Shown piece after piece: positions 39,499 through 48,378 of a DNA stretch of 64,000 nt. The stretch lies in contig CAVPOC010000006.1 in NCBI GenBank assembly GCA_963706955.1, forward strand, positions 64,001 through 128,000, given 5' to 3'. Origin of the DNA: an uncultured Verrucomicrobiae bacterium. GTDB taxonomy: Bacteria; Verrucomicrobiota; Verrucomicrobiia; Chthoniobacterales; Terrimicrobiaceae. The notes under the pieces are model-generated. The model ran no database searches. It had not been told where the DNA came from and saw only the letters and a list, made by a program, of their open reading frames with translations. Each line of letters begins with the position of its first letter. Positions within the stretch are counted from its first letter, which is position 1. Both the position numbers and the translations under genes were made by a program.

Positions 39499-39539
39499 TT
39501 GACCCAGGTCAAGGAGGACCCCGCGCGATTCGCTAGTCT
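39499..39539 (+). promoter_or_regulatory. FNR/DNR-type box and class II promoter of hmp
   Basis: TTGAC-CCAG-GTCAA (39499-39512); -10-like TAGTCT (39534-39539) places the box at about -41; SD AAGGAGG at 39564-39570. Confidence 0.75.
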
Positions 39540-39574: not shown

Positions 39575-40801
39575 ATGTTATCGCAGCGGACTATCGACAT
39601 TGTCAAAGCAACGGCTCCGGTCCTCGAGGAGCATGGGGAGACCCTTACTCAGCACTTTTATAAGCGAATGTTCGCGCATAACCCGGAAGTCGCGCCGTTT
39701 TTTAATCCGGCTCACCAACGGGCAGGTTCGCAGCAGAAGGCTCTCGCCGCGGCCATTTGCGCCTACGCGGCGAATATCGAAAATCTAGAAGTGCTGGGCG
39801 GAGCGGTCGAGTTGATTGCCCAGAAACATTCCTCACTGCGCATCTTGCCGGAGCATTATCCGATTGTTGGCGAAAACCTGCTGGCCTCGATCCGCGAAGT
39901 TCTAGGTCCGGCAGCCACGGAACAGGTGATCACCGCATGGGCCGAGGCTTACGGGTTTCTCGCCGAAATTCTTATCGGCCGCGAAAAGCAGATATATTCC
40001 ACGCATGAGCGCGCCCGCAATGGATGGGTGGGATTCAAGCCGTTCCGGGTGGTTCGAACAGTGCCTGAAAGCGAGATCATCACCTCATTTTATTTGCAGC
40101 CTGCGGATGGCGGCGGGATGCCTGTCTTCAAACCTGGCCAGTACATCACCATCCGCATTCCGGACGATCGCGGGACGACAACGATGCGGAATTACAGTCT
40201 TTCCAATCCACCTGGTGAAGAATTCTTTCGCATCAGCGTGAAACGGGAACCAAGAGGTTTTGTGTCCACTTTTCTGCACCGAAGTGCCAACGAAGGTACC
40301 GAGATCGAAACCGGGCCTCCTTGTGGAGAATTTTTCCTCGATCTTACCGAAAAACACGAGCGCCCGCTGATGCTGCTTTCCGCAGGCGTCGGTATTACCC
40401 CGCTGCTTAGCATGTTGTTGGGCGTGCTCAAGACTCAGCCCGAGCGGGAAGTCTTTTTCGTTCATGGTGCATTGAACGGACGAGTGCACGCCTTCCGGGA
40501 TTTCGTTCGCGAACTCGCCGCCAGCCATCCGAACCTTAAGGTCCACTACCGCTACAACGAAGCGACTGCCGAAGACCGTCAGAAGCGATGGCATGATAGT
40601 GAAGGGCTCATCGACGCGGAATTGCTCGAAGATATGCTGCCCGATCGCGACGCTGACTATTATTTTTGCGGTCCGAAGCCCTTTATGGTCGGGATCTTCC
40701 ACAATCTTCTCAAATGGGGCATTCCGGCCTCCCAGGTTCACTTCGAATTCTTTGGGCCGCGACAAGAGCTCGAAACCGGCGAGTCCGAGCCAGAGGAGTA
40801 A
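39575..40801 (+). CDS. hmp: flavohemoglobin (NO dioxygenase)
   Basis: globin (TIDIVKATAP, FYKRMF..NPE, IAQKH, HYPIVGENLL), FAD domain (FKPGQYI, RNYSLS), NAD domain (AGVGITP, FCGPKPFM, FEFFGP). Confidence 0.96.
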   Translation: MLSQRTIDIVKATAPVLEEHGETLTQHFYKRMFAHNPEVAPFFNPAHQRAGSQQKALAAAICAYAANIENLEVLGGAVELIAQKHSSLRILPEHYPIVGENLLASIREVLGPAATEQVITAWAEAYGFLAEILIGREKQIYSTHERARNGWVGFKPFRVVRTVPESEIITSFYLQPADGGGMPVFKPGQYITIRIPDDRGTTTMRNYSLSNPPGEEFFRISVKREPRGFVSTFLHRSANEGTEIETGPPCGEFFLDLTEKHERPLMLLSAGVGITPLLSMLLGVLKTQPEREVFFVHGALNGRVHAFRDFVRELAASHPNLKVHYRYNEATAEDRQKRWHDSEGLIDAELLEDMLPDRDADYYFCGPKPFMVGIFHNLLKWGIPASQVHFEFFGPRQELETGESEPEE

Positions 40802-40803
40802 AG

Positions 40804-41541
40804 CTATCTTGCGACTAACTCGACCGCCTCGCCTAAGAGTTGGTGCATCGTCAATTCAGCTCGCTGTGGATCGAGCACGAGGATGCCTTTGGAAGTTGTG
40901 CGAATAAGTTGCTTGTCTCGAAACCTGCGCAGCATGCGCGAGAGCGTCTCGCTGGTAATGTTTAACTCGGCTGCGACGATGCGCTTCGGACTTTCAAGTT
41001 CGATCTCGCAGGGATGACTTGAACGCGGAATTGGACAATGCCTCAAGAGCCAATTAAGGCAGCGCGCTTCGGCGTTCTTTAATGTAAGATCATCCAGAAG
41101 GCCGACGATATTCCGCAAATGCCGGCTCATGGAACCGATCATTCGCAACGCGAGTTCGGGTCGCTTGCGCAACAGCGCCACAAATTCTGCCTTTGGAATC
41201 AGAATGACAGCGCTCGGCGCAAGTGCGCGTGCGCTGGCCGGGTAACCATCATCCGAAGCCAGGGCAGCTTCGGCGAAGGAGTCACCGGGATGAAAGACAT
41301 GAAAAATCTGCGCCTTGCCCGCGGCGTTCACGCGATAGATGCTAATAGCTCCGCGTTGCACAACAAAGAAACCCTCACAGGGTTCTCCTTCGCGAAAAAG
41401 GGTTTCCCCTTTGTCAAGGCTGATGACCCTTGAGAACGAGCTGATCTCGGTGATCTCAGGCGATCGTAATCCTTCAAAGATTTGTGAGCGGAGCAGAGAA
41501 TTCTGAACCACAAGATGATCGAGACGAGAAGTCTTCGCCAT
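40804..41541 (-). CDS. Crp/Fnr family regulator (DNR/HcpR-like, no FNR N-terminal Cys cluster)
   Basis: LFREGE, GDSFAE cNMP-like domain; HTH recognition helix ITSETLSR. Confidence 0.92.
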   Translation of the reverse strand: MAKTSRLDHLVVQNSLLRSQIFEGLRSPEITEISSFSRVISLDKGETLFREGEPCEGFFVVQRGAISIYRVNAAGKAQIFHVFHPGDSFAEAALASDDGYPASARALAPSAVILIPKAEFVALLRKRPELALRMIGSMSRHLRNIVGLLDDLTLKNAEARCLNWLLRHCPIPRSSHPCEIELESPKRIVAAELNITSETLSRMLRRFRDKQLIRTTSKGILVLDPQRAELTMHQLLGEAVELVAR

Positions 41542-41582: not shown

Positions 41583-41624
41583 TTGATTTGGATCAAGGCT
41601 CAAAGCTCCAAGATTTGTTAAGTT
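41583..41624 (+). promoter_or_regulatory. consensus FNR box and extended -10 of the nitrate reductase-like operon
   Basis: TTGAT-TTGG-ATCAA (41583-41596); TGtTAAGTT (41616-41624); ATG at 41633. Confidence 0.8.
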
Positions 41625-41632
41625 ACGCTGCG

Positions 41633-42679
41633 ATGTTTGCCACGTTGAACCTCCGCGCGCTGGCGGTGGCTACCCTGGCCACGTTACTCCTGATTGTGGG
41701 GGTATACGTCGGCTCTCGCAATCTGCAGAACTTCGATGCCGCCCTCGTGCCATACCTCGTTGGCACCCTGTTTGCGGCCTTTGGCATCGTGTATCGCTAT
41801 GTAGTGTGGCTTCAGCGGCCGCCGACGCGACGCTATTTCAGGCGCAGCCTTGAGTTGCTCTTTAGCGGAAAGTTCCTCTCCTACGGCTGGGAACTCCTCA
41901 AACACTTTATCGCGGACTTTCCCTTCCAGCGTTTCATTGCCCACCGAGGTCCACGTCGATTCTGGGGCCACTTTCTGATGTCTTGGGGTTGCATGATCGC
42001 GTTCGCGGTGACGATCCCGCTGACCTTTGGATGGATCCATTTTGGGCTGAAGCAAGGCGGCATCGATACTTATGAGGCGTTCGTCTTCGGCTACGAGGTC
42101 ATGGAGTTTCCGCTCAACAGCTTCATCGCTTACAACATCTTTCACATTTTGGATTGGTGTTCATGGATGGTAATTGCCGGGGTTCTCATCTTCATGCGGC
42201 GCCGCTTGACGGAGCTCGGCCAAATCACCTTGCAGACGTTCGAAGGCGACTGGCTTCCGTTAGTGCTCCTCCTGGCAATTTCGGTCACCGGACTCGGGTT
42301 GACCTGGGACTATGATTTGATGCACGGCAAGTATTACCCGTTTATGGCGGTAACCCATGCGATTACCGTGATCCTTTTTCTTATTTGGATCCCCTTCGGG
42401 AAGTTCTTTCACATTATCCAGCGGCCGGCGCAGCTTGGCATCGCCATCTATCGCAAGGCAGGTGCTGAGGGGCCGCAGGCTGTCTGTCCGCATACCGGGC
42501 AGGAGTTCGCGTCGCAGATGCAGATCAACGATCTCAAGGTGGTGACCAAAGAACTCGGCTTTAACTTCGATCTGGAAAACGGCGGCTCGCATCTTGACTT
42601 GAGCCCGCAGGGCAAGCGCGCAGCGCTGGCAAAGGCGCATCTGGCTGTGCGCAAGGAGGCCGGGCAGTTCTTTGGCTGA
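41633..42679 (+). CDS. NarI/DsrM-like (nitrate reductase gamma family) membrane subunit, probable cytochrome b
   Basis: multi-TM protein with His in TM segments (WGHFLM, IFHILD, VTHAIT) and [10 protein letters not shown], resembling the NarI PFSRLVH motif; start at ATG 41633. Confidence 0.75.
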
Positions 42680-42699
42680 TCCCGGGAAGCGTTGGCAAT

Positions 42700-44994
42700 A
42701 TGGCAAAACTGCCCACTAGCGACGAAGCTCTGACCAGCCAGTTTGGGCCGCACCTTAACTATCCGCCGCGCGAAGGCTTCCCCGGACGGAACGAACCGGA
42801 CAAGATCGTCGAGACCCATTGCTGTTTCTGCGGGATGCAATGCGGCATCAAGCTTGTGGTCAAGGACAACAAGGTCGTCGGCTTCGAACCTTGGGAAGAG
42901 TTCCCCTTCAACGAGGGACGCCTCTGCCCGAAAGGCGTTCAGCGTTACCTGCAAAACAACCACCCGGACAGGCTGCTTTTCCCGTTGGAGCGGGTCGACG
43001 GTGCCGGCTTCAAGCGCACGAGTTGGGAGCACGCTTTCAAGAGAACGGTGTCTGAAATCCAGCGCATTCAGAGCAAATATGGACCCGATGCCTTTGGAAT
43101 GTTATCGGGTGTCTCCTTAACGAACGAGAAGAGCTACCTCGTCGGCAAGTTTGCCCGAGTGGCTCTCAAGACTCGCAATCTCGACTACAATGGCAGGCTC
43201 TGCATGGTCAGTGCTGGCGCAGGGAACAAGAAAGCCTTTGGTCTGGATCGGGGATCGAACAATTACTCCGACCTCAAACACGCAGAGGTAGTCATGATCT
43301 GCGGTACCAATGTCAGTGAGACGTTTCCAACATTGACGCACTGGCTTTGGCAGGCGCGTGATAATGGCGCGAAGCTTGTCGTCGTCGATCCACGGCTGAC
43401 CCCTATCGCGCGCACGGCCGATTTGCACCTGCCAATCCGGCCAGGCCGCGACTCCGCGCTCTACGGCGCGATGCTGCATCAACTGATCAAGCATGACTGG
43501 CTTGATCACGCGTTCATCGACAACTACACAAGCGGTTTTGAGGAAGCGGCCGCCGCGGTCAAGGATTATGACCTGAACTGGGCCGAAGAGGTCACCGGGA
43601 TCGCGAAGGATAAGATTATGCGTGCTGCCGAATGGTGGGGCCAGGCGAAGACCAGCTTCCTGATGCATGCTCGGGGGATTGAGCACCAAACCAAAGGTGT
43701 CGAGAACGTCAGTGCTTGCATTAATCTGGTCCTTGCGACTGGCCGCCTCGGCAAACCGTATTGTGGTTACGCCACCATTACCGGACAGGGTAATGGTCAA
43801 GGAGGCCGCGAGCACGGACATAAGTGCGACCAACTTCCAGGCAATCGCGACATCGAAAATCCCGACCACCGGCGTTACATCAGCGAAGTCTGGGGTATCG
43901 ACGAGAAGGAGCTGCCAGGGAAAGGGTTGACCGCTTACGAGCTTATGCAGGCAATCCACCAGGGCGAAATTAAGGGACTCATCTCGATTTGCTTCAATCC
44001 GGTTGTTTCGCTTCCCAATAATAACATGATTCGAGAGGCGCTCGAGAAACTAGAATTTTACTGTGCGATAGATTTCTTCCTCAACGAGACTGCGCACTAC
44101 GCTGACATCGTGCTGGCGGGCTCATTGCACGAAGAAGAGGAGGGCACGGTCACCACCGCCGAGGGTCGCGTGACGCGCATTCGGCAGGCCGTCACGCCGC
44201 CGGGAGAGGCGCGCACCGACACCGAGATCATTCTTGAACTGGCCCGACGTCTCGGAGCGGAGAAACATTTTTCCTTTGGCACCTCTGAGGACATCTTCAA
44301 CGAGCTGCGTGTCGCTTCAAAAGGCGGTACCGCCGATTATTTCGGGATCACTTACGAGAAGATTGAGAAGAACATGGGCGTCTTCTGGCCTTGCCCCAGC
44401 CTCGATCATCCAGGCACACCGCGCCTTTGGGAAGACCGCAAATTCAAAACACCCGATGGCAAAGCGCACTTCGTTCCCGTCGCCTACCGCGATCCCGGCG
44501 AGGTGGCCGACGCAGAATTTCCAGTAATCTTGACGACAGGCCGTGTCGTCTCGCAATACCTCAGCGGCACGCAGACGCGTCGCATCGGCAGGCTGGTCGA
44601 CCAGTATCCGGAACCGCTCCTGGAAATTCACCCAAAGCTTGCGGCCCAGTATGGTATTTCCGACCGAGAGTTGGTTCGCGTGGTCTCGCGACGCGCTAGT
44701 GCCGAATTTCCGGCTCAGTTAGTGGAAACGATTCGCGAAGATACGGTTTTTGTTCCGTACCATTGGGCTGGCAAGAAGTCGATCAACCAGCTCACCTCGG
44801 GCCATCTGGACCCAGTTTCGAAAATCCCAGAGTTCAAGGTGAGTGCGGTGCGGTTGGAGCCACTTGGCAAGGAAGCCCCACCACCGAAACAAAGCAGCCT
44901 CCAGCCAAGCGGCGGCTCACCAGCCCATCCGAGTCCAAAGCCCCCGCCGGTTCACGAATTTGCCCGCGCACCCAAAGAGCCCGCTCCTGATTGA
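42700..44994 (+). CDS. Mo-bisPGD oxidoreductase catalytic subunit, Nas/Nap-clade nitrate reductase-like, cytoplasmic
   Basis: HCCFCGMQC...GRLCPKG [4Fe-4S]; NGRLCMVSA Mo-Cys ligand; [36 protein letters not shown]; no Tat signal. Confidence 0.85.
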
Positions 44995-45026
44995 TCGTCC
45001 AACTTTAACCTCAAACGCAACTGACC

Positions 45027-45593
45027 ATGCTCCTTCAATTCAAGCAGGAAGAAGAGTTCTTCATGGACCCACAGCGTTGCATCGGCTGCCACGCGTGCGA
45101 AATGGCGTGTGCCGAATGCGAAACCAACGGGCAGACGCCGATGGTGAGTGTCGATTACGTCGAGCGTTACCTTTCCCCGCAAACCAGTGTCCAGATCTGC
45201 ATGCATTGCGAAGACCCGGCCTGCGCCAAAGTTTGCCCCGCCGATGCTATTCAGAAAGATGAGTTTGGCATCGTGCATAGCGCCAATACTGCGCGCTGCA
45301 TCTCCTGCTCCAACTGCGTCTATGCATGCCCATTTGGGGTGCCGAAAAAGGCCGAACCGATGCAGCTCATGATCAAGTGCAACATGTGCTACGACCGCAC
45401 CAGCGCCGGCAAGAAACCGATGTGCGCCACCGTCTGCCCGAGCGGGGCGCTTTGGTACGGAACGCGAGAAAAAATGCGTGAATTGCGTCCGAACAGCACC
45501 CCAGTGAATACTTTTCGCTTTGGTAGACAAACCGTAAAAACAAAAGTCAACGTCATGATGCCCAAGGGCAGCAGTGAGCTTGTGGTGGACTGA
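45027..45593 (+). CDS. four-cluster [4Fe-4S] electron-transfer subunit (DmsB/NrfC-like)
   Basis: [39 protein letters not shown]...PMCATVC. Confidence 0.92.
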
Positions 45594-45597
45594 TACC

Positions 45598-46125
45598 ATG
45601 AATAAAGATATCGAAGCCCCCCTGCCGTCGCGGCCAGCATGGAACGCCGATTTCCCGATCGACCGTGTCGAAGCGCAGCATGTCTTACGGCGAGAATTCG
45701 CGAAGTATCTTGTCCTCGTGTCTGGCGGGCTCGCTGCCGGCAGCGCATGGGTTGCCGTCCGTGACAAGCTCTTCCCGCATCAGCCCATCACCGGTGAGCA
45801 TCTCATCTGCAAGACACAGGACGTGCCGGTCGGCGGCACACATGCCTTTACGCTTCCGGGGAGCGCAGTGCCGTACATCCTTATCAACCTTGGTAACGAT
45901 GAATGGCGTGCCTTCGAGCAAAAGTGCACCCACCTCTCCTGCGCGGTGTTCTACCAGCCGAAAGAAGGCAAGATCGAATGTCCTTGCCACAACGGCTGGT
46001 TCGACGCGCGGACCGGCGCTCCACTCCAAGGCCCCCCGCAGCGGCCCCTCCCTCAGCTCCAGCTGGAAGTTCGGGGCGACGACATTTTCATTGTGCCATC
46101 GAAGCACGAAGAGCACAGCGCTTAA
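45598..46125 (+). CDS. membrane-anchored Rieske [2Fe-2S] protein
   Basis: LRREFAKYL plus hydrophobic helix; CTHLSC and CPCHNG boxes; GPPQRPLP; start at ATG 45598. Confidence 0.9.
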   Translation: MNKDIEAPLPSRPAWNADFPIDRVEAQHVLRREFAKYLVLVSGGLAAGSAWVAVRDKLFPHQPITGEHLICKTQDVPVGGTHAFTLPGSAVPYILINLGNDEWRAFEQKCTHLSCAVFYQPKEGKIECPCHNGWFDARTGAPLQGPPQRPLPQLQLEVRGDDIFIVPSKHEEHSA

Positions 46126-46131
46126 AGTCGC

Positions 46132-47643
46132 ATGTCTGCTACTCGACAGGCTCTGAGTCAGGTTCACCCGGCAAAGACAAATGTCCTCTCTGCCGGGCTG
46201 ATTTGTGTCCTGATCTTAATTGTCAGCCTCCAGATCTGGCTGCTCAGTGCGAGTTTGAACACTTCGCTTGGAGGGGAGGCTGGTATCGCCTGGCCGGCGT
46301 TTTATGCCTCGGTAGTCTTGTTCTTGGCGAGCCTTGTGGCGCTTAGCTATCTGCCTCTGCCGATTCGATTGCCGGTGGTGATTGAACGCGAGGAGGCGTT
46401 TACCGATGCGGCACTTGCCTGGCGCACGCTTGGGATTAGTGCAGTCTCGCTTGGGCTCGCGTTTGCGGTGTGGTTCATGTGGTCGGCGATCACCGTGAAG
46501 ATCAACGATGCCGGCTTTGGTTTATCCAAGAACCAGCTTTTCTGGCTGACAGCCACTCCGGTCATCCTCGGTTCTCTGCTGCGCATTCCTTATGGTTTGA
46601 TTGTTTCGCGCTTCGGCAGCAGGCGCAGCTATGCCGTCGTAACACTCCTGCTTTTGCTGCCTGCGCTCGGAACCGCCTGGGCGGTCCGAGATCCGAAAAC
46701 TCCGTATGGGATGCTGCTCCTCTGGTCTGCACTGACTGGAATTGCCGGCGCCAACTTCGCCACTTCGATGGCCACGGTCACACTCTGGTTTCCCAAGAAG
46801 CTGCAAGGATCGGCACTTGGCATAAACGGCTTGGGCAACCTCGGAGTGACAGTCGCCCAGTTTACCGTCCCACTGGTTATCGGGTTTTCGCTGGCCGGTA
46901 TGGCTGGGGCTACACCTGACGCAGTCGCGCCTCTCAACCTCGAGAACGCCGCGCTGGTCTGGGTGCCCTTCATCCTGATCTGTACCGCCGCAATCTGGTT
47001 CTGGACGGAAGACTACCCGTCTAAGCCGCAGACGATAGCTTCCCAGCTGGTTGCGGGGAAACGGCTTCACACCTGGGTTCTTTCGCTGCTCTACTTTCTG
47101 ACTTTTGGCTGTTTTGTGGCCATGGGTGCCTCTCTTCCTCTCATTATCAAAGAAGTTTTTGCTTCGGCGCCTGGCGGCGCCCCAAGTCCGTTGCTCTACG
47201 CACCGTGGGCGGCAGCCATCGCCACCCTCATGCGACCGGTCGGAGGCTGGTTGGCGGATAAGTTTGGGGCTGGTCTGATCACAACGATCTCGATCGGCAC
47301 CATGGCAATCGGAGGGTTCAGCCTTTCGGCGTTTCTTCAACCGGACGGTTTCGCAGGATTCTTTGCCGTGGTCCTGGTCATTTGCGCGGCTTCGGGACTT
47401 GGCAACGGCAGCGTCTTCAAGATTATTCCGCTCGTGCTCGCGAAAGAGGCGGGCGCCGCGATTGGCATTGTCAGTTGCATCGGAGCCTTGGGTGGCTTTG
47501 TTCCGCCGCTCTTGCTCGGATGGACGATGGGTGCCTTTGGAAGTCCAGCGTGGGCTTACACTGCGATGGCCTTATTCGCTCTGCTCTGCCTGGCAGTTAA
47601 CGGCTATTTCTATCATCGCAGCAGTTCGCCAACCCACTGTTAG
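46132..47643 (+). CDS. narK: NarK-family nitrate/nitrite MFS porter with extra N-terminal two-helix domain
   Basis: FAVWFMWS, LGSLLRIPYG, GIAGANFA, WFPKK.QGSALG, GLGNLG, TFG.FV, MRPVGGWLADK, GLGNGSVFK, GALGGF. Confidence 0.88.
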   Translation: MSATRQALSQVHPAKTNVLSAGLICVLILIVSLQIWLLSASLNTSLGGEAGIAWPAFYASVVLFLASLVALSYLPLPIRLPVVIEREEAFTDAALAWRTLGISAVSLGLAFAVWFMWSAITVKINDAGFGLSKNQLFWLTATPVILGSLLRIPYGLIVSRFGSRRSYAVVTLLLLLPALGTAWAVRDPKTPYGMLLLWSALTGIAGANFATSMATVTLWFPKKLQGSALGINGLGNLGVTVAQFTVPLVIGFSLAGMAGATPDAVAPLNLENAALVWVPFILICTAAIWFWTEDYPSKPQTIASQLVAGKRLHTWVLSLLYFLTFGCFVAMGASLPLIIKEVFASAPGGAPSPLLYAPWAAAIATLMRPVGGWLADKFGAGLITTISIGTMAIGGFSLSAFLQPDGFAGFFAVVLVICAASGLGNGSVFKIIPLVLAKEAGAAIGIVSCIGALGGFVPPLLLGWTMGAFGSPAWAYTAMALFALLCLAVNGYFYHRSSSPTHC

Positions 47644-47689: not shown

Positions 47690-47990
47690 ATGGATTTGTC
47701 GACTAACTATCTCGGCATGAAGCTGCGCACGCCGCTCGTGGCTTCGGCTTCACCTTTATCTCGCAATGTTGACGACGTGAAACGTCTGGAGGAGGCCGGA
47801 GCTGCGGCCGTCGTCTTTCACTCCGTCTTCGCGGAACAACTGCAGTCCAGCGCCAAAGCTGCAGACTTCAGAGTGGACCCCGAACTTTATCTCAACCACA
47901 TCGCACAAGCAAAGGAGAGCGTAAGCATCCCGGTCATTGGTAGCGTGAATGCCGCAGCCCCCGGCAGCTGGGTCGGCTATGTTCGACGGG
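47690..47990 (+). pseudogene. 3'-truncated dihydroorotate dehydrogenase-like protein
   Basis: MDLSTNYLGMKLRTPLVASASPLS...EEAGAAAVV..SVF.EQ...IPVIGSVN...W..Y is the family N-terminus; similarity stops at about aa 100 where a palindromic repeat begins. Confidence 0.75.
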
Positions 47991-48378
47991 CGCGCCTCCA
48001 GGGCCAGTGTTGGGCAACGCCCAAGGTGCCGAGCACGCAGAACAGCAGGAGCGCTGAAGGCGCGATTCATCCAACGTCGTCTTTCGACAATGGACCACCG
48101 TGTCCTGATCGCGGGAGGGATCCCAGGACTGGTTTGCGAACGATCGTTGCTTCTATGGGCAGCGCGTTTTTGTAGGGCGAGCGAGTTCGATGCGCTTCTT
48201 GTTTGCTTGGAACACAGCCCAAGACAGCGGCGACCGGCCGCAAACTTGACTACGAGTTTGAGGAAGCTCATGTCGGGGGAGCTACGTCTGTGAATCGCGC
48301 TTTCAACGCTGATTATTTGAGTGCGTGTTGCCTTGGCGTTGCCCAAGGTTAGCTAATAAGACCGCGCCCTTGGCGCTG
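47988..48378. repeat. nested inverted-repeat (REP/MITE-like) element, copy A
   Basis: arms AGCGCTGAAGGCGCGATTCA (48050-48069) / TGAATCGCGCTTTCAACGCT (48291-48310); TTGGGCAACGCCCAAGG / CCTTGGCGTTGCCCAA; same modules recur at 63756-63982. Confidence 0.7.

Follow-up and report, generated by a model that had tools for sequence, protein, structure and literature searches.

The locus examined here (positions 41633..47643 of the 64,000-nt window, that is, the whole stretch of DNA analysed, from an uncultured Verrucomicrobiae bacterium; coordinates below are window positions) likely encodes a membrane-bound nitrate-respiring enzyme that is unlike the three textbook types and is conserved across several bacterial phyla. 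Five co-oriented open reading frames (ORFs), spaced by 20, 32, 4 and 6 bases, make up the locus, as a first-pass annotation of the sequence had described. That annotation recognized a NarI-like membrane subunit (M), a molybdenum catalytic subunit (Mo subunit), an iron-sulfur (Fe-S) subunit, a Rieske protein and NarK. It overlooked a DUF6755 domain ahead of NarK: the last ORF (46132-47643, 503 aa) joins the two according to Pfam and NCBIfam, which also assigned the Mo subunit, the Fe-S subunit, the Rieske protein and NarK to their families. We count DUF6755 as the fifth subunit of the module, fused to NarK in this genome. The module is most probably a menaquinol-linked, cytoplasm-facing dissimilatory nitrate reductase (probability roughly 0.7), as the first-pass annotation had proposed. 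This reading is based on the NasC clade of the catalytic subunit, linkage to NarK, the NarI-like anchor, the conserved gene order, the lack of nirB and nirA in 160 loci and a denitrification island in one Flavobacterium genome. The module most likely works like NarGHI without belonging to it, falling outside the Nar, Nap, Nas, Fdh and Aio families as these are defined and using parts of each.

The catalytic subunit groups with NasC-type nitrate reductases by score and by phylogeny. Its best NCBIfam match was NasC (NF047855) at 854 bits, below the curated cut-off of 1100, followed by the formate dehydrogenase (Fdh) alpha subunit (TIGR01591, 612 bits against a cut-off of 666), the NapA hidden Markov model (HMM; 270 against 904), AioA (TIGR02693, 147 against 359) and NarG (TIGR01580, 67 against 1084). 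In a quick tree of 28 rows, including 13 module sequences and three Fdh rows, the module sequences formed one clade (SH-aLRT, Shimodaira-Hasegawa-like approximate likelihood ratio test, 95) inside the Bacillus-NasC clade (SH-aLRT 100), with the three Fdh rows outside. The surrounding NasC and NasA enzymes are nirB-linked and share GRxCM and [11 protein letters not shown] with the module Mo subunit; the translation contains [15 protein letters not shown] as well as [11 protein letters not shown]. The Cys-ligand motif reads NGRLCM (GRLCM) and is missing the His that follows the Cys in the Fdh-type RxCH, and a Pro-rich tail begins at about residue 722. No RRxF was present in the first 45 residues of 75/75 full-length homologues. 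The kinship with Nas-type enzymes, rather than with NarG, is as first annotated, and the statement that there is no Tat (twin-arginine translocation) signal holds for this subunit but not for the Rieske protein, which has RREFAKY plus a hydrophobic helix. On these sequence features, nitrate is well supported as the predicted substrate.

Four other identities of the Mo subunit were considered and rejected. An FdhF-type formate dehydrogenase is at odds with RLCM in place of RxCH, with the position outside the Fdh rows and with the TIGR01591 score below cut-off. NarG differs in length (about 1200 aa against 764 aa) and ligand (Asp, not Cys), in line with the 67 bits to TIGR01580. NapA was rejected on the missing RRxF, the HMM score and the presence of napD in 0/160 loci, and an AioA-clade enzyme on the TIGR02693 score and the presence of the Cys-ligand motif.

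The M of the window had no Pfam match and only weak matches to TmcC, HmcE and QmoC (E 2e-8 to 1e-6). A homologue, P0167, exceeds the cut-off of the NarI family (PF02665), and hhalign matched the M profile to Escherichia coli NarI at 94.6% over the C-terminal half, pairing H242 with H187 and H260 with H205. These two results, rather than any Pfam match of the window's own sequence to the nitrate reductase gamma family, support M as a NarI-family homologue. The anchor proposed in the first-pass annotation as a NarI-like cytochrome b is thus retained, with three rather than four of the NarI heme His. M has six hydrophobic segments, and three of its His (H113, H242, H260) do not vary in either alignment (48 and 55 rows); H113 probably corresponds to NarI H56. 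NarI H205 is, we assume, the cytoplasm-side heme ligand. Six helices with a cytoplasmic C-terminus would place H113 and H260 towards the cytoplasm and H242 towards the outside, a topology that fits the two kinds of NarK fusion described below, both of which join ends predicted to be cytoplasmic. The His pattern suggests one bis-His heme plus a remodelled distal site. An AlphaFold2 model of M (pLDDT, predicted local distance difference test, 94.4) gave EtfD as its top Foldseek match (probability 0.99, E 0.17, TM score 0.41), the other listed rows being mostly G protein-coupled receptors. For EtfD, a section of PMC13083937 describes one b heme with bis-His ligation in the membrane part, next to a putative menaquinone.

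M ends in a soluble domain with a CxxC..CxxC pattern in 73/75 metagenome homologues. Its profile aligns weakly (E 0.04) with the Cys quartet of HycF, which, in the part of PMC9474812 that deals with it, binds metal at the HycB/FdhF interface. This lineage and the Bacteroidota homologues shown have lost three of the four Cys in residues 285-348 (42485-42679), with C285 and R329 invariant.

The Fe-S subunit and the Rieske protein are confirmed as first annotated (a DmsB-like 4x[4Fe-4S] subunit and a Rieske protein). The Fe-S subunit has 17 Cys in 78/78 homologues, one above the 16 needed for four clusters; the extra residue is the invariant Cys31 (45117-45119). In the Rieske protein, a twin-arginine motif precedes a hydrophobic helix in 114/114 module sequences (RR in 96 and RK, in the Chryseobacterium group, in 18), and the disulfide Cys C115 and C130 are invariant in 52 sequences. 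The twin-arginine anchor helix and a disulfide Cys in both boxes are traits shared with bc complexes, and the closest solved structures are quinol-cytochrome c reductase Rieskes (3fou, 1nyk), b6f Rieskes and AioB. A Ser in the Rieske box is linked to high redox potential, and the module Rieskes have none at the high-potential bc1 position. Because of the anchor, the missing Ser and the presence of tatC and mqnC in the host genome, the Rieske head likely lies outside the membrane and is suited to menaquinol. DUF6755, which is named in no paper in the literature searched, has Q34, W36 and S60 as invariant residues.

From gene content, homologies, motifs, synteny and genome co-occurrence, we propose a scheme for substrate, cofactors, complex formation, topology, the Rieske role and energy conservation. 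Menaquinol would be oxidized at the outer face of M, in the region that accommodates the distal heme in NarI. Of the ligands there, M would keep one, H242; the role of the distal redox centre would fall to the outward Rieske cluster, kept in position by its anchor helix together with DUF6755. A single b heme near the cytoplasm (H113/H260) would relay the electrons to the four [4Fe-4S] clusters, from which they would reach FS0 and Mo for the cytoplasmic reduction of nitrate to nitrite. NarK would bring nitrate in and let nitrite out. Protons released outside and consumed inside would form a redox loop, and the Crp-family regulator would control the operon. In the host the reaction likely ends at nitrite, as an electron sink at low oxygen with Hmp removing nitric oxide (NO); in some Flavobacterium species the module is likely the first denitrification step. 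A rather unlikely elaboration is that the electrons of quinol are split as in half a Q-cycle, one passing inward through the single b heme to nitrate and the other through the outward Rieske to a cytochrome c in the periplasm that would supply NirK, Nor or an oxidase. If true, such splitting would make the module a fourth class of respiratory nitrate reductase, with a bc-type Rieske in place of the distal heme of NarI and the first two denitrification steps joined in a single complex, in lineages that are scored as having neither narG nor napA.

Scanning species-representative genomes identified 423 stretches encoding M relatives, of which the best 80 of 423 were taken as genome loci; these are mostly from Bacteroidota and hence not independent. 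Another 80 loci came from metagenomes, with divergent homologues as seeds, for a total of 160. The Mo gene follows M in 80/80 genome loci, and the order M-Mo-4x[4Fe-4S]-Rieske-DUF6755 is intact in 78/80, both exceptions ending at contig edges. Metagenome loci with enough room contained Mo in 70/70, Fe-S in 39/39, Rieske in 35/35 and DUF6755 in 22/30 cases, counts that include locus L205 through a different upstream Mo/Fe-S/Rieske set (canonical counts: Mo 69, Fe-S 38, Rieske 34). By annotation, Deinococcus plasmids show the same gene order, and a Brevibacillus record also shows it. Within the host phylum the module is rare, with a strong match in 3/301 genomes, this one included. None of nirB, nirA, narJ and napD was found in the 160 loci by tblastn. 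NarK lies within the fetched flanks of 55 of the 80 genome loci and molybdenum cofactor (Moco) genes in 52, so that NarK is a usual, not obligatory, neighbour. DUF6755 is a separate gene in most relatives, and NarK is fused to M in 8/80 metagenome loci and to DUF6755 in this window. The database name 'MFS transporter' (major facilitator superfamily) for M likely arises from the fusion to M. The survey bears out the expectation that similar clusters exist in other phyla under generic annotations (here, an assimilatory enzyme plus a transporter), with conserved order and no adjacent nitrite reductase or NarJ/NapD.

Several loci depart from this pattern. In L205 (823-8020) the genes ahead of the M homologue code for an unrelated Mo enzyme of 842 aa (27%), an Fe-S fusion of 612 aa and a Tat-Rieske of a different kind; this anchor family may serve another molybdoenzyme too. 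The Chryseobacterium/Epilithonimonas loci (L050-L073, L082) have no NarK, RK in place of RR in the Rieske, and a sulfite-oxidase-type Oxidored_molyb protein among the Moco genes. A SLAC1/TDT-family anion channel adjoins M in NarK's place in L019, L020, L034, L052 and L074. On both Deinococcus plasmids examined, a small conserved hypothetical gene overlaps the start of M (L096 7699-7896, L101 6684-6896), and two genomes (G406, G434) contain two module copies, 93% and 84-85% identical to the query.

The genomic setting was analysed in the host (92.5% complete), in 50/80 carrier genomes searched for Mo and nitrite reductase families, and in 101 Flavobacterium genomes. Four PF00384 matches occur in the host: the module, a NasA beside nirA and an ABC nitrate transporter on contig C1, a YdeP-like protein and one resembling both Fdh and NuoG. 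The C1 nas locus (G000:C1 about 109300-121900 = L008 3341-15927) encodes a nitrate ABC transporter, a diflavin reductase, NirA that continues into a 4Fe-4S domain, a DmsC-like anchor and NasA. The first-pass statement that there is no nitrite reductase is therefore correct for the module locus and not for the genome, where a NirA-type enzyme lies in this separate locus. The DmsC anchor within the nas operon is odd, and several ORFs there are split, possibly through assembly errors. PF02613 (NarJ/TorD-family chaperones) had 0 matches in the 92.5%-complete genome, and its COX1 matches score best as oxygen reductases. Among the 50 carrier genomes, 23 have a NirB-sized NIR_SIR match, and those same 23 have a separate NasA of ~1170-1330 aa; 2 have NirA plus NasA, and the other 25 comprise 8 without a NIR_SIR match and 17 with sulfite-or-nitrite-reductase-type matches. 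The module is the sole PF00384 match in 14/50.

In the Flavobacterium sample, M occurs in 28 genomes, nirB in 39, nirK in 43 and nosZ in 25, and the 39 genomes with nirB are the same 39 that have a large NasA. Carriers have nirK in 22/28 cases, against 21/73 in the others, and it lies <=31 kb from M in 12. No NarG-sized Mo protein was found in the 28 carriers at the threshold used. In G441 (one contig, 2.79 Mb), the module sits in a ~46-kb island with norCB, nirK, norQD, Moco genes, two narK, nrdD, ric and clade II nosZ. The module is the sole PF00384 match of this single-contig Flavobacterium genome, which has no NIR_SIR match, and it fills the nitrate-reductase slot of a complete denitrification island.

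A perfect Crp/Fnr box lies between the operon and a divergent regulator, 36 bases ahead of the start in 4/4 close Verrucomicrobiae loci with diverging flanks. Any such box was found in just 9/79 loci scanned (4.7% of shuffled sequences), and this 4.2-Mb genome contains 16 matches to a relaxed pattern; the support for the box is therefore its conservation, not its rarity. At 41616-41624 a -10-like element (TGn-TAAGTT) stands at class II distance, from which an almost leaderless transcript would follow. The "one FNR box" of the first-pass annotation is thus present at 41583-41596, but the adjoining regulator is without FNR's Cys cluster and a second box lies before hmp. The adjacent Crp-family regulator likely reads the operon box, and since it lacks the N-terminal Cys cluster, sensing of nitrogen oxides would be likelier than sensing of O2. 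Hmp is likely a co-regulated accessory gene. The box, Hmp, NrdD and RIC are neighbours and controls of a low-oxygen or NO type. After narK, a dihydroorotate-dehydrogenase-like gene (47690-48175) is truncated in the window, only its first ~105 codons matching intact ~325-aa relatives (L012, L013, L026).

Table 1. Features of the module locus and its upstream neighbourhood, in window positions (Mo-bisPGD, molybdenum bis-pyranopterin guanine dinucleotide).
Feature	Position	Strand	Remarks
M, NarI-family membrane subunit	41633..42679	+	348 aa; relatives begin at aligned codon
Mo-bisPGD catalytic subunit, Bacillus-NasC clade	42700..44994	+	764 aa; one N-terminal Fe-S motif; NGRLCM
4x[4Fe-4S] subunit, DmsB/HybA-like	45027..45593	+	188 aa; 17 invariant Cys
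Rieske [2Fe-2S] protein, twin-arginine anchor RREFAKY	45598..46125	+	175 aa; boxes CTHLSC, CPCHNGWFD
DUF6755, two-helix membrane protein	46132..46371	+	residues 15-74, E 1.2e-10; NarK-fused at this locus
NarK-family nitrate/nitrite MFS transporter domain, same ORF as DUF6755	46399..47643	+	TIGR00886 263 bits vs cut-off 311.7
Crp/Fnr-family regulator, divergent	40804..41541	-	without FNR N-terminal Cys cluster; beside M in 4/4 close relatives
Flavohemoglobin Hmp (NO detoxification)	39575..40801	+	NF009805 above cut-off; own box TTGAC-N4-GTCAA at 39499-39512
Crp/Fnr-family box TTGAT-N4-ATCAA	41583..41596		between divergent regulator and operon

Several observations weigh against a menaquinol-linked respiratory enzyme. 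Ten residues past H113 of M, at the position that we take to match NarI H66, the residue is Ala or Ser in 55/55 rows and not His, and the heme count and quinol site remain predicted. The EtfD match has no significant E-value, and NarI is absent among the Foldseek matches listed. The box is not general in Bacteroidota loci, and 25/80 genome loci, the Chryseobacterium/Epilithonimonas group among them, have no NarK. Neither NirK, NrfA nor NosZ was found over cut-off in the host genome at its 92.5% completeness. One carrier (G312; L025, C45) has the module ~15 kb from a 1220-aa NarG-sized Mo protein, and both enzyme designs may coexist there. The F. columnare genes FCOL_02080-02105, in the section of PMC5395568 that lists them, follow the module order by annotation, not by sequence. 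In Flavobacterium, nosZ is not enriched in carriers (4/28 against 21/73), and nirB plus NasA occurs in 26/28 carriers against 13/73 non-carriers, a stronger link than that of nirK, with nirB <=36 kb from M in 11 carriers; the Flavobacterium kin are not independent and neither association test is clean. The nirB association is the main evidence against the favoured reading, though each nirB genome has its own NasA.

This association bears most directly on an alternative assimilatory role, in which a quinol-fed enzyme would pass nitrite to NirB or NirA encoded elsewhere, the reading given for B. bataviensis in a section of PMC3475470. The NasC-clade catalytic subunit also favours it. We consider this role highly improbable: all 39 nirB genomes of the Flavobacterium sample own a large NasA, the 8 carriers named above and G441 have no NIR_SIR protein, the host has its separate nas locus, and the low-oxygen or NO-type box and neighbours point elsewhere. 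Another substrate or direction is improbable as well, whether chlorate, selenate, formate dehydrogenation or nitrite oxidation feeding the quinone pool. The solved structures closest to the Mo subunit by sequence are formate dehydrogenases, a match that reflects which proteins have been solved; the NasC score falls short of its cut-off, and some loci have the SLAC1-family channel or no transporter where NarK would be. Set against these points are the missing Fdh His, the grouping with nirB-linked NasC enzymes sharing [11 protein letters not shown], and the position fused to or beside NarK and inside a denitrification island. Nitrite oxidation in particular would drive electrons into menaquinone steeply uphill by established redox potentials.

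An outward-facing form of the enzyme is unlikely but would account for the Tat motif found in every module Rieske examined and in no Mo subunit examined. In AioBA, AioB carries AioA over the membrane by piggy-back export. The module Rieske, which has AioB among its closest solved relatives, would in the same way carry the Mo and Fe-S subunits across, giving a Nap-like enzyme with no proton-motive loop, and the loci without NarK would fit. Against this, the kept His pair matches the cytoplasm-side heme of NarI (H260 with H205 and, probably, H113 with H56), the soluble tail after the last helix of M resembles the HycF site, which is cytoplasmic, the fusion of NarK at one end of the module in some loci and at the other in this one suits cytoplasmic catalysis, and the host genome yielded no NarJ/TorD-family chaperone.

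With the cytoplasm-facing respiratory enzyme as the preferred reading, the module can be compared with known systems. It shares with E. coli-type NarGHI the NarI-family anchor with equivalents of H187 and H205, a four-cluster Fe-S subunit, a Mo subunit without a working export signal, NarK, a Crp/Fnr box and the predicted principle. It differs from NarGHI in its 764-aa Cys-ligated NasC-clade Mo subunit in place of a ~1240-aa NarG, in the lack of NarJ and in the Ala/Ser at the H66 position, and it adds the Tat-anchored Rieske, DUF6755, an extra N-terminal helix of M and the C-terminal Cys domain. Bacillus-type NasC (NF047855) and the nirB-linked NasA of Actinobacteria and Deinococcus belong to the same catalytic clade, with the same active-site motifs; the module, unlike them, scores below the family cut-off, is never beside nirB or nirA in the 160 loci, is wired to the membrane and coexists with a separate nas. 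The haloarchaeal pNar operon combines a nitrate reductase with a Rieske and a cytochrome b, its NarG being Tat-exported and its cytochrome b of bc1 type. This operon is also cited, with Rieske and cytochrome b, in a section of bioRxiv 10.1101/2020.09.30.321786. The module differs from it in the unexported, NasC-like Mo subunit and the NarI-type cytochrome. In AioBA and IdrAB, too, the Mo subunit has no signal and the Rieske bears a Tat motif; AioB is close to the Rieske of the module, and to our knowledge these systems have neither a NarI anchor nor NarK. The module's 147 bits to TIGR02693 set it apart, and AioA has no amino-acid Mo ligand according to a section of PMC10100899. The membrane domain of mycobacterial EtfD resembles M by the Foldseek match and the single b heme near a putative menaquinone, but EtfD is a single-chain electron transfer flavoprotein:menaquinone oxidoreductase without Mo or Rieske, and the match has E 0.17 and TM 0.41.

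The cluster has been noticed before as 'Nar lacking NarI' or as 'alternative assimilatory', and is apparently uncharacterised biochemically. No biochemical study of the module was found in the literature searched, in agreement with the first-pass annotation, although two papers mention the cluster under other names. A section of bioRxiv 10.1101/2020.09.30.321786 describes an Apibacter 'NAR' cluster that lacks narI, has a Rieske instead and contains three narK. The cluster is likely this module, as the Apibacter loci read NarK, NarK, M, Mo, Fe-S, Rieske, DUF, Moco, M having been counted as a transporter. In PMC3475470, the section on B. bataviensis links nasC with an Fe-S protein and a Rieske as an alternative assimilatory system; judged by gene order only, this is likely the same module. 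The relevant section of PMC5395568 lists FCOL_02080-02105 as an antiporter, a 'major facilitator transporter', a nitrate reductase, a 4Fe-4S protein, a Rieske and a hypothetical protein, the listed NarG match being only 28% identical. It also assigns the large subunit of the NAD(P)H nitrite reductase to F. johnsoniae only and reports better anaerobic growth of F. columnare with nitrate.

Surveys assign nitrate respiration through narG or napA and count NasC-like genes as assimilation, and would likely miss this module. For the combination of a three-His NarI-type anchor with a Tat-anchored Rieske, no description of such an electron-transfer design was found in the literature searched. DUF6755 and a large family misnamed 'MFS transporter' gain a testable role, and cultured strains carry the module, making it directly testable. 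If the module is respiratory, it would be a counter-example to the statement, in a section of PMC10100899, that NasC/NasA homologues act exclusively in assimilation, and it would likely explain the nitrate-supported anaerobic growth of F. columnare. The nitrate step would then be mis-scored in common soil, water and gut bacteria, with 28/101 of the Flavobacterium genomes sampled carrying the module.

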